This document shows positions 27,986 to 62,792 of a stretch of DNA of 64,000 nucleotides, piece after piece (position 1 is the first letter of the stretch; each line of letters starts with the position of its first letter). This stretch comes from an uncultured candidate division Zixibacteria bacterium. Lineage in GTDB: Bacteria > Zixibacteria > MSB-5A5 > GN15 > FEB-12. Both the position numbers and the translations under genes were made by a program. The stretch covers positions 800,001-864,000 of the forward strand of contig CAWDXE010000001.1 of NCBI GenBank assembly GCA_963806185.1, in the 5' to 3' direction. Under the pieces are notes generated by a model, which was not told where the DNA came from, searched no databases, and saw nothing but the letters and a program-made list of their open reading frames with translations.

Positions 27986-28175
27986 ATGCGTGGCGTATGT
28001 CCCGTGCGCCAGTGCCCCCTCGTCATCCTGAATCATTCCCCCCTTCATCATCCTGAATCATTCCCATGATTCAGGATCTCGTTGTCCACCGTCCTCTCGA
28101 TCCTGTCATTGCGCCGCTCGCTTCCCGCCCCCAAGTCATTGCGAGGCTCGCTTCTTAGCGAGCCGTGGCAATCTC
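27986..28175 (+). repeat. Mosaic palindromic repeat cluster 4
   Basis: GCGTGGCGTA element, stuttered GTCATCCTGAA, TGTCCACCG linker, stuttered GTCATTGCGAGG. Confidence 0.85.
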
Positions 28176-28792: not shown

Positions 28793-29298
28793 GTAGGTCA
28801 GGATCCCCGCTTCTTAGCGGGTGATCCTGACGTTCTGTTCTGGGCTGAGCGAGGTCGAAGTGCGACGATCGCCCACAAACCCCTCGTCACAGTCATTGCG
28901 AGGCGCGTTTCGCGCCGTGGCAATCTTTCAGTTCTCTTCCCCCTCTCCCACTGGGAGAGAGCTGGGGTGAGGGCCGATAGGGACCTCGACATCACACGAC
29001 TCTCACAAAGACAAAGACGTCGCACTGAGCGAAGTCGAAGTGCGACGATCACCCACAAACCCCTCGTTACGGTCATTGCGAGGCGCGCTTCGCGCCGTGG
29101 CAATCTTTCAGTTCTCTTCTCTTCCCCCTCTCCCTCTGAGAGAGGGCTGGGGTGAGGGCTGCTTGGGACCTCGACATCACACGGCTCTCACAAAGACAAA
29201 AACGTCGCACTGAGCGAAGTCGAAGTGCGATTGTGCGGGCCCCCCGTGCATGTTCCGTCAAGTCCTGCGACGCTTCTTAGCGGCGTGTGACCGGACGG
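28793..29298 (+). repeat. Mosaic palindromic repeat cluster 5 with ~180-bp tandem duplication
   Basis: CTGAGCGA(G/A)GTCGAAGTGCG recurs at 28845, 29025 and 29210; intervening sequence nearly identical. Confidence 0.9.
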
Positions 29299-35780: not shown

Positions 35781-36092
35781 GTACCCCACCGGAACGGTGG
35801 GTTCATGATTCAATGGTTTCCCCTTCACCCGCATGCTGGCGCTCTCCCCGTACCCCACCGGAACGGTGGGTTCATGATTCAATGGTTTCCCCTTCACCCG
35901 CATGCTGGCGCTCTCCCTGTAGCCCACCGGAACGGTGGGTTCATGATTCAATGGTTTCCCCTTCACCCGCATGCTGGCGCTCTCCCCGTACCCCACCGGA
36001 ACGGTGGGTTCATGATTCAATGGTTTCCCCTTCACCCGCATGCTGGCGCTCTCCCCGTACCCCACCGGAACGGTGGGTTCAGGTTTCAATGG
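35781..36092 (+). repeat. 69-bp tandem REP array, five REP copies, downstream of RAYT
   Basis: GTA(C/G)-CCCACCG-GAA-CGGTGGG at 35781, 35850, 35919, 35988, 36057. Confidence 0.95.
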
Positions 36093-36615
36093 CTTCAGTA
36101 TCCATTTCAAGTTTACATCCACGTATGCCAGCGTACCAGCGACAGCTCGACCACTCCCACTGCTCAGCTGACTTGATCAACCCCGCCCTAACTGGATTAT
36201 TGTGACAATACTCGATAGCTTTCCGTACCTCTTCTACGTTCCGGCACGATTTGTCAAAACACCGCTTGTACCATAAACTGAACCTATGCTCGTGTCCTTG
36301 CTTGGTAGTAAGCCGATCAATCAGGTAACCGCCATGTCTGCCAATCTGAACGTGAATGCGCCGCGTGCTTTCCCTCTTGATGACTCCGATGACTCCCCCC
36401 AATTCAGTCTCTGAGGGAGGCACGATTACCAAGTGTACATGATCAGGCATGATCACCCAGCCCAACAGTGAGAATTGTGCGCATGCTCGTGCCTCGGCGA
36501 TGCTATCGACGACTGCCTGGCGCGAAGAATCGTTGGAAAGCAATGGAATCTGATGACGTGTGCCAAAAGTGACGAATCGAGCCCGTCCATCGTGATCATA
36601 GTGAGTCAGAAGCAT
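36079..36615 (-). mobile_element. REP-associated tyrosine transposase (RAYT / TnpA-REP, Y1 HUH)
   Basis: FVTF.T, VIMPDHVH (HUH), EYCHNNPVRAGL (catalytic Tyr), W.WSS; flanked by REP hairpins. Confidence 0.92.
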
Positions 36616-36670
36616 AGAAGCGTCACATCACGTAGGAGTGAATCGGCGGCAATAACCTCGCCCCCGTACT

Positions 36671-37036
36671 GTACCCCACCGGAACGGTGGGTTCATGATT
36701 CAATGGTTTCCCCTTCACCCGCATGCTGGCGCTCTCCTCGTACCCCACCGGAACGGTGGGTTCATGATTCAATGGTTCCCCCTTCACCCGCATGCTGGCG
36801 CTCCCCCCGTACCCCACCGGAACGGTGGGTTCATGATTCAATGGTTCCCCCTTCACCCGCATGCTGGCGCTCCCCCCGTACCCCACCGGAACGGTGGGTT
36901 CATGATTCAATGCTTTCCCCTTTACGCCAGGCTGCTCTCATCATCCGCCAACGTCTCTGGCCACACAAGACATCCAAATTCACCCACACGCCGGTTATAG
37001 CCAATGAACTTCAAGCCCACCGTTCCGGTGGGCTAC
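36671..37036 (+). repeat. 69-bp tandem REP array, four copies plus one inverted REP, upstream of RAYT
   Basis: Copies at 36671, 36740, 36809, 36878; inverted GTAG copy at 37016-37036. Confidence 0.95.
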
Positions 37037-37051
37037 CGAAATCCACCCCCC

Positions 37052-40000
37052 TTACTCGCACCCCACCTTCAGCGGCTCGAACGTGATGAACAGATGATTT
37101 ATCAGCGCCGTCAAATCCCCGATATCCACCTGACAATCCCCCGTCACATCCGCCACCAACGGCGGCTCGATCGGCTCGAAGGTTATGAAGAGATTATTGA
37201 TCAACGTTGTCAAATCCCCGATATCCGTCCCGTGCGAATGATCAACATCCCCCAGCGTCCAGGTCCAGAATTCCTTCGTCGCGGCGAGCGTGCTCGCATG
37301 CTGACGGTCCCACGCCGTCACCCGCCACCAGTAATGCGTCCCGAACTCCAGCGAATCGGAAATCGTAAACGACGTTCGCCAACAGCGAATCCCGCACATA
37401 CGCAAACGCGAAATTCGCCCGATCCGAAACCTCCAGCTTATACCGCACCGTATCCTGCGGATCGAGATCGACCGCCGTCTGCCAGACAAACTGCGGCAGA
37501 AGATTGAACACCGGCTTGTTATCCGGCATCGGTGGCGATGTCAGCGCGAATGCCGCCGGCGGCTCATTGGCACCATTGACCAGGAACTGACCATACGATG
37601 TCCACGCCGAGTACTCAAACCCGTCGAACGCCCGCACCCGCCACCAGTACCGGCAGTTCTCCGCCAGCGCCTCGATAATCGCGCCTGCGGTGGAGTCTTG
37701 CCCCGACGGTACATTGGTCAATTCAATCGCCGGCCCCGCCACACAGTCGGTGTCGTGGAACCCGGCGAAATCGTAGGTGAGCGGATCGTTTTCGGCGTCT
37801 GACGAATTGCTGACCCACAGATTGGGGTAACTTCCGACGATCGCCATATTGATCGGCCCGATCATCACCGGCACCGCGGGCACGGAATTCATGCGGAACG
37901 AACTGTAATACCACGGCGACCAGAGCGTGCCGTTATAGACGCGAAGTCTCAGGTAGTAGGTCTGCCCGTCGCTAAGGGGCGAACCGTTGTAGACGACGAA
38001 CGTATCGCTCGACACCACCGGCGCCGGATTCCACATCTCGGAGTAGGTCCACTCGTTATCGGACCCAACCGCGATTTCGAACTGGGTCTGGGATCCCACC
38101 GGCGAGCCCCCATACCCCCATGTCAGGACGGGGAGAGTATTCATCACATGTACGTTGGTCATCACACCATCTACATCCACATGATTCAGTTCGAATACAG
38201 AGCTGTCTGCAGGAACGCTGTTCGCTCTGAAAGCAGCCGAAATGATGTCACTTTCGGTGTTTCCGGCCAGAATGGCAAAGCTGACCGTATCCACGGCGTT
38301 TGGCGCCAAGCTGATCGGCCCGGCCGACACAACCTGCACGATATCGGTAGCGGCGCCGATCTGCGTTGTCGCCGTTGCAAACCCATTGGTCAAGGACGTA
38401 TACTTCTCATCCGAAGTGAAACCGTTGCCACCCCAAAACGGAATCCAAGCGGTGGAGCCGAGCGCAGTCCAGGCAGATGCCCAGTCTCCTTCGATCACTT
38501 TGGCCCCGCGAAAATCAGATTTCGTACCACTGCTGTTTTGCGCCACCCAAGCCACATGGTTGGTTGCGTCATAGGCGCCGCAGTTGGGAGCGGGACTCTG
38601 GTTGATATACGGCGTCTCCCAGTCCATATATAGCCCGACATACATCGAAGGGATCGCCGAACCGCTGATGTTCTTGACAATGTACCTGATGATCAAAAAA
38701 TCATCGTTTGGCGCGGCCTGGCCGAAAGTCTCCTGGGTAACTTCGACGCCGATCGGCGACGCCGCCCCGTCGTCGGTGAACATCGACCGTGTTATGGTAA
38801 GTGATCCGGCGGTCGTCACTTGAAGATTCCCGTCTGCAACGGGAGTGAAATCGCGATCAGGCTCGAAACTGATACTGTGTACCGCGCTTGGCACCTGACC
38901 AAAGCCGGTGCCGATCATGAGCCCACCCTCCAGCAGCTGATTGCCTGAGGCATTAAACTTGAAGCCGACACCACCTGCTGGAAAACCGAGATTCGGACCA
39001 AGCCCCACGGCACCCCAATTGCTGACGCTCAACTGGATCTTGCCGGTGCTGTGCGTGTAGAGCTGGCGTGTCACCTTCGGGGAGACGAGCACAGACAGAG
39101 TTGTAGAAACGTCGCCGAAACCCGTGCCGGAAATCAACACCGACATCGGCAGGACGGCCCCCTCAAGTGCCGATGAATCGACGACTACTTTGATGATGTC
39201 GAGCGCCTTGCCGGTATCCAGCGCCGTGATCGTCCCAAACGATGCCGCACCGTCGATGACAGTCAACAGCGGGTCGGCCGACTGAACGTTGAGCGTCACG
39301 TTGCTGCCGGTCGCGTTACCCGTGTTCTGGAGTACTACGTACCCGGTGAGAGTGTCGCCGGGACCGACCTGATTCGCGATCAAATCGTACACGCTCAGCA
39401 GCGGCGAAGCCGCAGGCGCCGGCAGAGCGGCCAGAGGCCGCCACGCAGTCGATCTGTCCCCAACCGTAATCATTGTTGGGCAACGCTCCCCAATTTGAGC
39501 CGGGTGCAGCCGCCGCTGAATTCAGTATGGCCGTTTTGATCTGCGCCGGAGTCGCATTCGGGTTCTTCTGGCGCATCAGCGCCACCAGGCCGGAGACATG
39601 CGGAGCCGCCATTGACGTGCCCGACATGAAGCCGGTCGTGTTGGTCGGAATAGTGGAAAGTATGTTGGTACCCGGAGCGACGACGTTTGGCTTCACCATC
39701 CCTGCCTGGCAGGGGGACGGCCCACGCGACGATGATCCGCTGAGTACCGGCGGACTGACGGTAGAATTGAGATTGCCAATGGCAAAACAGTCAATGGTGC
39801 TCAGCGCCCGCTCGGCCGGATTGCGCGGTCCGGTAGCGCCTTCATTGCCAACCGCAAAAATATTCACGATTCCAAGAGCTTCGGTATTGTCGATGGCCTC
39901 GTAATAGATGTCCATACATTCGAAACCCTGGAAACCCCAACTGTGGTTGATCACGTCGGGCATATCCTCTACGGTCGACGGATTCCCATCGGGATCAGCG

Positions 40001-40863
40001 GCCCATTCAAAGGCGTCCAGTATCGATGCGTCGACATCGACCACACCGGCCGAGATCCACTTGGCACCCGGGGCTACACATAGCGTATCGCCGGTGGCGG
40101 GGTTGCGCCCTACCATAATACCCATGGTGTGCGTGCCATGGTTGCGGGAGCTAGGGTCAACTGACGAAATCAGATGTGGGTATTTCAATTTATCGATCGG
40201 GTCAAACCAGGCGGCAGCAGAGTCACCGTCGGTCCCCTTCCACGTACCGCTCAGTCCGGCGTTTGTGCCTTCAACGCCGGAGTCAAAAGAACAGACTATT
40301 CTTCCCCGGCCGGTATACCCCAGCAACCAAGCGAGATTGGCCTTTATGTAGGTGATATTACTCGCTACGCCTGCCGCGCTCGGTGGCAAGTCACGGCTAC
40401 TGGATTCTTCCACCGGAGCAATGAGGGTCGGGCGCGGGATCGTGGTCACCAACTCAACATCAGGACGCGCCGCCAGAGCGAGCAATGCACTCACCGGGAC
40501 TTCTGCCTCCACGACATTGGCAATCCAGTGGCCTTTTGGCGGACGGGTTGCCCTGCCTTTTCCGAGCGAGGATAGTTCATCCAGCAGGCGTGTCTGCGCC
40601 ATCCGGCTGTTATCGCGCAGCGCTTGAATAGTCTCACGGTGGCGGACAGCCGGGGGAAGCGTCTGGTCGGCAGCGATACCTCTTGCATCCATGCGAATGG
40701 AGGGTGGCGCCACCTTGATCCAGACCCGGACCAGGCTGGTATCGGGCAGACTCTGGACCCGTGCCAAAAGATCGGAAGAGAGTTCCCCCGCCACGCCGGC
40801 TGAGGTGAGAGCGACGAGAAGCAAGATGAAGCCGATATGCACTTGACTAGTGAGCTTTCGCAT
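37052..40863 (-). CDS. Large secreted S8 subtilase with C-terminal dockerin-like pair; frameshifts near 39440 and 37370
   Basis: FDSGV, HGTHTMG, GTSMAAPH triad; GDVD...DIGDLT.LIN.LF twice. Confidence 0.88.
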
Positions 40864-41054
40864 AAGAGAATACCTCCAGCACAATCAGTTTCGAGAGCAC
40901 AACCCTACGTTGCGGATCCGATGACGCTGCCCGTACACCGGAAGGCATACTGCGGCAAACAGGAAAATCACCACCCCGCGCATACTCGCTCTCATATCAC
41001 CCTCGGAGATTAGTACCAGTCGAACGTGTGAACTGTCGGTCTTTGTGTGCTGTA

Positions 41055-42144: not shown

Positions 42145-44602
<2,458 letters not shown>

Positions 44603-48322: not shown

Positions 48323-48502
48323 GCGAACTGTGCCGACCTTTCCCGGCGCCGCCAGTCGGCTCAGGCGAGGAGTGCGCCGTGGCGCACGGACCTGCTTTAG
48401 GTGGAGTATATGGCCTCCCCGCCGACAAATGCAACGTCTTTCATCTCATAATGATACGTTACACAGTACCTCAAAGTCGAGCCAAATAAATGGGTGGAAA
48501 AC

Positions 48503-48722
48503 GTAGGGCGGAACTCATTTGCGATCACCACAGGTTACGCATCACCGGACGGAACGGGCAACGTAGGGCGGAACTCTCTTGCGATCACCAAAGGTTATGC
48601 ATCACCGGACGGAACGCGCAACGTAGGGCGGAACGCTCTTGCGATCACCAAAGGTTATGCATCACCGGACGGAACGCGCATTGAACACAGCCGTCAATCA
48701 GCGCAAGGGAGTTCCGCCCTAC
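48503..48722 (+). repeat. 60-bp tandem triplication of a GTAGGGCGGAAC arm closed by one inverted arm
   Basis: GTAG at 48503, 48563, 48623; inverse GCAAGGGAGTTCCGCCCTAC at 48703-48722. Confidence 0.9.
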
Positions 48723-48761
48723 TACGGCTATGCGGTTCGGGTTAGGTTCACTTGGGATCCG

Positions 48762-49160
48762 GTCATGGCGAGGCCCCCCCACAAACGTCATCGCGAGGCT
48801 CTCCCCCACAAACGTCATCGCGAGGCTCGCTTCGAGCCGTGGCGATCTTTCAGTTCTCTTCTTTTGTAGGTCAGGATCCCCGCTTCCGAGCGGGTGATCC
48901 TGACGCTCTGTTCAGCAAGGACGGCATCCCCACGCATACACACCGCTCGTCGCGCAGTGTCGTCCTGAGCGCCCCCCACCGTCGTCCTGAGCGCTCCCCC
49001 ACCGTCGTCCTGAGCGCCCCCCCACCGTCGTCCTGAGCGCTCCCCCACCGTCGTCCTGAGCGCAGTCGAAGGACGAGATAGTCAGCGTTAATGCGTGGCG
49101 TACGCCCCGTGCGCCAAGCAGGGTGAAAGAAGGCTGGCGCACGAGACGCACGCCAGCCAT
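48762..49160 (+). repeat. Mosaic palindromic repeat cluster 7
   Basis: Stuttered GTCATCGCGAGG, GTAGGTCAGGATC REP at 48866, stuttered GTCGTCCTGAGCG at 48959-49075, GGCGTACG doublet. Confidence 0.9.
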
Positions 49161-62313: not shown

Positions 62314-62792
62314 GTAGGTCAGGGGCCTCGCGCCCCTGACAGAAGGCTGCACTGCGGCATCAGAATAGAACGTCAGGATCACCCGCTAAGAAGCGGGGAT
62401 CCTGACCTACAAGACACTTACTTCTCCCCAAGGTCATCCCCGCCCTCCCCAATGTCATCCCCGCCCTCCCCAATGTCATCCCCGCCCTCCCCAATGTCAT
62501 CCCCGCCTTGAGCGGGGATCTATCCTCGGCACCAATGCGCCAAGTGACCATCTCTGCACAGCGGGTGTGATCCATCAGCAAAAGAGAGCTGAGAGATCGC
62601 CACGGCGCGAAGCGCGCCTCGCGATGACATCATAGGCGGATTTCATCTGTATTCGCGTATCACGGCGCTCACTCTTCCTCCCTCTCCCTCTGGGAGAGGG
62701 TTGGAGTGAGGGCCAAGTACGCTGAAGCGGCCGGCGAACGAGAGGTACGCCGGCCATAACCGACCGTCAGGCTCGCAGGGAGCCTGACCTAC
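62314..62792. repeat. Mosaic palindromic repeat cluster 9 (between convergent kinase and lysS)
   Basis: GTAGGTCAGG REPs, 21-bp stutter 62433-62521, GTCATCGCGAGG, CCCTCTCCC and GGCGTAC elements. Confidence 0.9.

Follow-up and report, generated by a model that had tools for sequence, protein, structure and literature searches.

A variable REP tag and a matching upstream dinucleotide in a clade of RAYT transposases, seen from a double REP array in a Zixibacteria genome

A RAYT transposase gene lying between two direct arrays of REP elements, most of which start with GTAC instead of GTAG, raises the question of whether such a tag is a peculiarity of one locus or a property of a whole group of enzymes, and of how the arrays came about. 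The locus is situated in a stretch of 64,000 nucleotides (hereafter the window) from the genome of an uncultured candidate division Zixibacteria bacterium. The reading we favour, with a probability of roughly 0.6, is that the window contains an intact RAYT with its REPs, that the GT of the tag is fixed while its third and fourth letters likely act as a DNA guide, with GTAC pointing to a G|T site, and that the double array arose by placement of a REP followed by slippage or exchange. The relevant features are:

35781..36077, plus strand: left array (downstream of the gene), four full 69-bp units and a fifth REP
35781 (GTAC), 35850 (GTAC), 35919 (GTAG), 35988 (GTAC) and 36057 (GTAC), plus strand: tag starts of the left array
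36079..36615, minus strand: gene for the RAYT (TnpA-REP), 178 aa, intact, NF047646 and PF01797
36666..36670, plus strand: GTACT, immediately preceding the first right-hand tag
36671..36925, plus strand: right array (upstream of the gene), three full 69-bp units and a fourth REP with a diverged tail
36671, 36740, 36809 and 36878, plus strand: tag starts of the right array, all GTAC
37016..37036, minus strand: lone inverted REP with a GTAG tag, in the orientation typical of the upstream REP of the clade

The layout described in the initial annotation was borne out: five plus four REPs, all on the plus strand, follow one another at an exact 69-bp period around the gene, and eight of the ten REPs carry GTAC, with GTAG confined to 35919 and the inverted copy at 37036. 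All ten share an identical 17-nt hairpin with one perfect 7-bp stem, and a search of the window for this hairpin (at most three mismatches) returned 20 strand-matches against 0.23 expected. The seven full units are identical to the first one at 67-69 of 69 positions, and each row ends in a partial copy (46/69 and 51/69). The stop codon of the RAYT gene had been placed in the last left unit; it does lie in the tail of the fifth copy, 1 nt beyond the hairpin, but this copy is not a full unit. Linkers this uniform differ from the unique spacers of a CRISPR array, and a single REP per unit, always in the same orientation, differs from the inverted doublets of BIMEs or REPINs. Rfam gave three weak matches, all under the gathering score; the 69-nt unit, its REP stem aside, folds no better than shuffled sequences; and a promoter and terminator scan stayed at chance level. 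The window contains further repeats, including three 60-bp direct units at 48500-48725, each starting with a GTAG tag and followed by an inverted partial copy, which belong to a different repeat family, and short tandem repeats at 28015-28065, 28845-29230, 48762-49063 and 62424-62507, several with GTC-type starts. Genome-wide, 80 hairpins follow TGTC against 19 expected, which suggests a REP family of the CGTC/TGTC type.

The gene is indeed a RAYT, as it had been called. Its product scores 104.9 bits against NF047646 (cut-off 80) as opposed to 24.7 bits against the IS200 model NF033573 (cut-off 55), and it carries H59-x-H61 and Y136..N140-P141, the HuH and catalytic Y---NP motifs by which RAYTs are defined (PMC6006769). 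H59, H61, Y136, N140 and P141 are invariant among 55 aligned proteins, and the AlphaFold model (pLDDT 89.6) has 4ER8 as its top Foldseek match (E 5.9e-10, TM 0.70). The protein belongs to a clade with the motif W-x-R-R-C-(Y/F)-D-H-N-C-R, and its own version, WYKRCFDKS at residues 115-123, reads as previously noted. Since it deviates at four of 40 well-conserved columns, the enzyme may be impaired; 19 of 145 relatives depart equally or more.

The genome (G000; 3.65 Mb in 8 contigs, 82% complete) encodes seven NF047646 matches, six of them over the cut-off, and a single copy of this gene, as opposed to the near-identical mobile copies typical of IS200/IS605 elements. The nearest paralog (C6:108159-108650; 53% identity, sister in the tree with support of 0.91) is flanked by two inverted GTAC REPs. 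The tail of its downstream REP (C6:108021-108089), which overlaps the 3' end of the gene, matches the 48-nt linker of the window (35802-35849) at 28 of 48 ungapped positions, a score reached in 0 of 20,000 shuffles, and this homology implies that the 69-bp unit is old. The exact window hairpin occurs elsewhere in the genome as three solo copies on contig C6, all with GTAC, i.e. it is dispersed at low copy number, and the gene is bracketed by an inverted pair, 36057(+)/37036(-), discordant in tag (GTAC/GTAG). Judged by these sequence features, the locus is a real REPtron. A census of the window stem type in the genome counted 55 distinct REPs, 36 with GTAC and 10 with GTAG. The window RAYT adjoins rpmA. 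Among the rpmA loci of 14 relatives, 13 have no RAYT within at most 1.5 kb; in the remaining one (L169 in genome G005), a RAYT from the other sub-clade (41% identity, GTGG tags) occupies the corresponding side of rpmA with matching orientation, possibly an independent use of one intergenic site.

To place the tag in context, we collected 271 homologous loci, mostly (among the best of them) from records titled Zixiibacteriota or Ignavibacteria, of which 261 encode proteins of at least 150 aa, 199 remain at less than 90% identity, and 146 have a REP within 1 kb. The remaining 53 loci, many of them distant relatives, lack a REP of the window stem type; as the stem pattern was defined after the first 45 loci had been viewed, it detects the window-type REP family only. 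A pass over the first 159 loci that was blind to the tag found GT-- on one side of 324 of 357 stem-defined hairpins. The 400 REPs flanking the 146 genes divide into GTGC (145), GTAC (90), GTGG (90), GTAG (40), GTAA (23), GTAT (10) and GTGA (2), so that 270 of them depart from the canonical GT[AG]G. One tag dominates at most loci (GTGC at 31, GTGG at 28, GTAC at 25, GTAG at 15, GTAA at five and GTAT at one); 29 loci have a single REP, and tags are mixed at 12 of the 117 loci with at least two. Pattern counts that did not demand a perfect stem are in agreement, with GTGC 727, GTAC 394, GTGG 371 and GTAW 129 in 101 genomes of the phylum, and GTAG 259 in 151. Of the 400 clade REPs, 364 have G or T as the base preceding the tag, yet this base is mostly C in the genome studied here. 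In a sample of 201 genomes of the phylum, 121 match the clade profile at E<=1e-30, with up to eight matches per genome, the weaker of which may represent other RAYT types.

The two REPs bracketing a gene share one tag in 84 of 98 pairs (among the 199 loci) as compared with 22 after shuffling, and a tree of 82 labelled proteins needs 29 tag changes instead of the 46.8 of shuffled labels; on this evidence the tag is heritable but labile. A phylogeny with flanking tags was the check proposed in the initial annotation, and GTAC proves normal for this RAYT clade and not a peculiarity of the locus. The suspected shift in tetranucleotide specificity holds insofar as the non-GTAG tag is real and probably means a different cut site; it is not specific to the locus, and a changed DNA guide is a likelier cause than a changed protein read-out. 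A link between WYKRCFDKS and GTAC was rejected: among the 25 non-redundant GTAC loci, 17 keep Q116 and 24 keep N123, the string is private to the window protein, and the others mostly read WQ(R/K)RC(F/Y)D(H/R)NCR. No motif residue at positions 115-125 sorts with the tag, and none elsewhere sorts prominently with its fourth letter (top mutual information 0.21, in scattered columns); position 18 tracks the third letter but follows the two sub-clades.

Genes of the clade normally have one REP upstream, about 77 nt from the start codon, and one inverted REP downstream, the latter at a median gap of 12 nt from the gene (120 loci, five of them with 1 nt), so that the small gap in the window is ordinary. 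The copy at 36057 is the typical downstream REP, whereas the typical upstream one, 37036, is farther from the start codon than at any other of 121 loci (421 nt, as against a clade median of 77) and is separated from the gene by the four downstream-type copies of the right array. The initial annotation noted that REPs usually occur as inverted doublets or BIMEs; tandem arrays of single REPs are, however, published (PMC3116915, PMC3733652), and in our set rows adjoin the gene at 17 of 146 loci, with at least three copies at eight, but same-direction rows on both sides of the gene are found at the window locus only. Another locus (L025/L216) has a twelve-copy direct array with a 38/39-bp period upstream of its RAYT, mostly with the 17-nt hairpin of the window and GTGC tags. 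Recombination between the direct arrays of the window could loop out the gene, which is geometrically possible; the double array is in itself a local curiosity of modest interest.

The finding of value lies in the clade as a whole, where the variable tag is accompanied by a matching dinucleotide just upstream. In 188 of 363 distinct REP flanks, a dinucleotide equal to letters 3-4 of the tag (hereafter the echo) starts at positions -7 to -3, as compared with 104 in shuffled data (maximum 127 in 2000 shuffles), although these and the following permutation values overstate certainty because related REP copies are not fully independent. The signal peaks at -6 and -5, and control windows at -14 to -10 and -21 to -17 are flat (86 vs 89 and 89 vs 94). 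It persists with one REP per locus (80/145 vs 42) and when tags are shuffled inside protein clusters, cut at four heights (observed/shuffled 174/117, 149/117, 104/87 and 87/77), and the rule was top (z 11) among eight dinucleotide rules tested, the seven alternatives being lower. Contrasted pairwise by tag, the echo differs at p<0.01 in eight of nine Fisher tests, the exception being GC, which precedes GTGG (39/87) as often as GTGC (60/123; p 0.58). The genome studied here shows the same pattern internally, with AC before 20 of 36 GTAC and 0 of 10 GTAG copies (Fisher p 0.002) and AG before two of 36 GTAC and five of 10 GTAG copies (p 0.003). The outcome is ambiguous for the other GTAG family of this genome (GTAG-GTCAGG type), which has AG in 17 of 32 cases as compared with 14 and five of 32 in control windows.

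Dispersed copies fetched afterwards replicated the result, with the echo in 63 of 140 as against 35.9 after shuffling (maximum 54), and in 39 as against 26.6 where hairpins are identical; this set comes from 145 loci after removal of 22 REPs near a RAYT, 20 double-tagged ones, seven duplicates and one edge case, with one GTGT copy left unused. The base preceding the echo is background-like and the one following it is biased. The echo is present in only about half of the REPs, and in a test confined to 32 loci with mixed tags the excess fell short of significance (55 vs 49, p 0.07). The 3' tail has no clear enrichment of the own or complementary dinucleotide, and its sequence logo no universal motif. 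In the window itself, the units and the left array edge are devoid of the echo; among the array edges, AC occurs upstream of the first right-hand copy alone, where it starts at -3, a non-enriched position.

How the echo could arise is suggested by work on characterized enzymes. The E. coli structure shows the protein enclosing G1 and T2, which leaves A3 and G4 alone available for pairing with the C|T site of cleavage (PMC3479197), and in the Marinomonas enzyme TnpA-Mb an engineered change of GTAG to GTAC moved cleavage to GA/GT, while in TnpA-Sm GTAC abolished it (PMC8266576). The clade keeps the letters held by protein and varies those that pair. The reverse complement of the echo is the cut site predicted by this in vitro guide model (GTAC gives G|T), located just 3' of an inverted REP, and E. 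coli TnpA-REP cuts at 'iREP' sites and at a distance, the published amplification model beginning at a site of this kind (PMC3333891). If letters 3-4 act as a guide, as is likely, the predicted site of cutting and joining for GTAC copies is G|T in place of the textbook C|T. The enzyme would bind a single-stranded REP, the guide would pair, in cis or in trans, with its complementary dinucleotide, situated on the opposite strand immediately beyond the inverted copy, and the enzyme would cut the complementary strand there and join it to a target that has this dinucleotide as well, strand transfer at that point fixing the 5' end of each new REP copy. As far as sequences can tell, the echo is likely the genomic footprint of naturally retargeted guides. 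The broader proposition, that this widespread clade represents a series of single-strand nucleases retargeted in nature, in which the two-letter guide of each REP picks an opposite-strand junction 3-7 nt beyond the tag, has in our estimate about even odds.

Junctions bear on the same point. The homologous loci contain six clean tandem duplications, a count that excludes the array-internal and indel rows L025, L059, L095, L218 and L285. In each of the six, a position 3-6 nt 5' of the tag is fused to a non-homologous site 80-747 nt downstream. Three of the junctions have microhomologies of at least 2 nt, namely AC (L092, GTAC), ACT (L212, GTAC; fetched after the echo idea had been noted) and AA (L010, GTAA); the other three (L087, L052, L017), with at most 1 nt, obey the rule only in one parent or in the product. 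When 52 pairs of recent copies are compared, the shared 5' sequence starts at the echo in 15 (including one misclassified long match, five pairs from the four copies of L215 and several cross-genome pairs), contains it in three, lacks it in 12 and is shorter than 3 nt in 22 (seven of them from the window array). The four dispersed GTGC copies of L215 have a common GCTTC before the tag and diverge beyond. Two direct REP-plus-tail pairs 1.2-1.4 kb apart were observed in the genome of the window (C1:462174/C1:463421 and C1:491182/C1:492587), the common sequence of the GTAG pair beginning exactly at AG and that of the GTAC pair two bases ahead of AC. At L010/L189, a 747-bp tandem comprises the whole gene-plus-REP cassette, with two full-length RAYT frames that are 96.6% identical and the AA microhomology of its junction lying 5-6 nt before the GTAA tag.

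Hairpins promote polymerase slippage, and the junctions lie a few nucleotides from a hairpin foot, three of the six with at most 1 nt of microhomology; both junctions and arrays might thus be products of hairpin-stimulated slippage with no part played by the enzyme. We regard this as very unlikely as a general account, for it leaves unexplained the tag-following dinucleotide upstream of dispersed single copies as well as the 84 concordant bracketing pairs out of 98. For the window rows alone the situation differs: each consists of n units plus one REP, so the breakpoints are hidden within the shared stretch of about 26 nt and slippage fits them equally well as an enzymatic origin. The opposite idea, close to the rolling-circle-type amplification by the HUH enzyme proposed in the initial annotation, is that both arrays are the work of the RAYT, through repeated cycles of nicking, extension and rejoining. 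A model of this type has been published for BIMEs (PMC3333891), and the rows next to the gene at 17 of 146 loci and the six duplications with non-homologous junctions at the REP foot speak for it. We nevertheless consider it rather unlikely for the window, whose units are devoid of the junction footprint seen elsewhere in the clade and whose edge copies are diverged while the inner ones are homogenized. Under the reading preferred here, the enzyme would have placed a downstream-type REP copy upstream of its gene, and slippage or unequal exchange between REPs would then have multiplied and homogenized one 69-bp unit on both sides. The first right-hand unit resembles the left ones while units 36740 and 36809 have two changes in common, a pattern that fits an exchange between the rows.

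The echo could also be read without any guide, if the fourth tag base were a free spacer and the upstream dinucleotide were inherited with the REP lineage or read by the protein. The conserved base before the tag would permit a motif in another register, and the mixed tags at 12 of 117 loci and the weak within-locus test point the same way. We judge this unlikely, as the echo follows both letters, varies in position from -7 to -4, comes after background-like bases and coincides with duplication breakpoints, while the 115-125 motif offers no residue sorting with the tag. An assembly artefact seems extremely improbable as the source of the copy number in the window. Of six public sequencing runs listed, none contained half of the sequence words looked for and no RNA run contained them; the four examined further yielded mainly rpmA, one 35-nt REP piece and one 36-nt gene piece, leaving array and gene uncovered, and most unit variants are in or beside C/T runs. 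Neighbouring genes are also apparently split, with a subtilase, Ig-like and dockerin coding region spread across three overlapping frames at 37052-40884 and a seemingly split Clp-ATPase-like ORF at 42145-43292, both possibly owing to indel errors in the assembly. Yet the units carry distinct variants shared in an ordered manner, with diverged edges, the contig is 1.1 Mb long, and similar arrays exist in other genomes.

The closest characterized system by structure is the E. coli TnpA-REP (YafM) REPtron (4ER8; group 2/subclass 2.2), with which the window RAYT shares the Y1-HuH fold and the HuH and Y...NP motifs, a gene bracketed by REPs, a 5' tetranucleotide at the hairpin foot and tandem local amplification. 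The identity of the two proteins is only about 20%, the clade has short perfect 7-bp stems and single head-to-tail REPs where E. coli has bulged stems and BIME doublets, and its tag varies at letters 3-4, whereas E. coli tolerates no change of GTAG (PMC3479197, PMC8266576). The Group 3/subclass 2.5 REPtrons of S. maltophilia (Sm) and Marinomonas (Mb) have short perfect palindromes too, and a D at the E100-equivalent position, and Mb cleavage can be retargeted in vitro by changing GTAG to GTGG or GTAC; their natural tag is, however, GTAG, the GTAC having been engineered, while GTAC, GTGC, GTAA and GTAT are natural and common in the clade (PMC8266576). Head-to-tail singles and tandem clusters near RAYTs also feature in surveys of the GTAG superfamily (PMC3733652, PMC6006769) and in the P. 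fluorescens SBW25 arrays (PMC3116915). In the accessible parts of PMC3733652, tag variation concerns letters 2-3 only (GYAG, GYRG, GTRG, GTMG), unlike letters 3-4 here, and a tag-matched upstream dinucleotide does not appear in the descriptions seen in these three sources. The automatic REP search of PMC6006769 required GT[AG]G, so C, A or T at the fourth letter would be missed. IS200/IS605 transposases (IS608, ISDra2), the next-best structural matches to the model, use a guide tetranucleotide 5' of the hairpin to select the cut site by base pairing; the window protein differs from them in its NF033573 score and its lack of identical copies in the genome, and the putative site of the clade is two bases long instead of four. 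In the open-access literature, the only paper found on RAYT and REP sequences with GTAC was PMC8266576, with nothing on TnpAREP in Zixibacteria and no paper on GTGC among those listed, and no earlier report of these natural tags or of the footprint was found there, although the manually found motifs of subclass 2.6 and class 3 (PMC6006769, Table S1) may include such tags.

How RAYTs spread REPs in living cells is an open question, and the guide role of GTAG has so far been based on a crystal structure and on engineered substrates of one flexible enzyme. Covariation of tag and site could not be seen before because natural tags were thought to be nearly fixed. A tag that varies across the clade, together with a junction dinucleotide that matches it, is valuable because the in vivo guide model becomes directly testable: the six natural tags of the clade yield predictions such as G|T for GTAC, G|C for GTGC, C|C for GTGG, T|T for GTAA and C|T for GTAG, and the echo at the 5' boundary of the copies points to a likely insertion junction and hints at its strand. 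Most repeats of this family would escape surveys that require GT[AG]G. RAYTs are said not to duplicate themselves (review preprint 10.1101/2021.07.10.451892); if the proposed mechanism is true, the enzyme would also be able to duplicate a whole gene-plus-REP cassette, as the tag-matched junction of the 747-bp tandem suggests, and the clade with its retargeted guides would be a genomic read-out of REP insertion in vivo.
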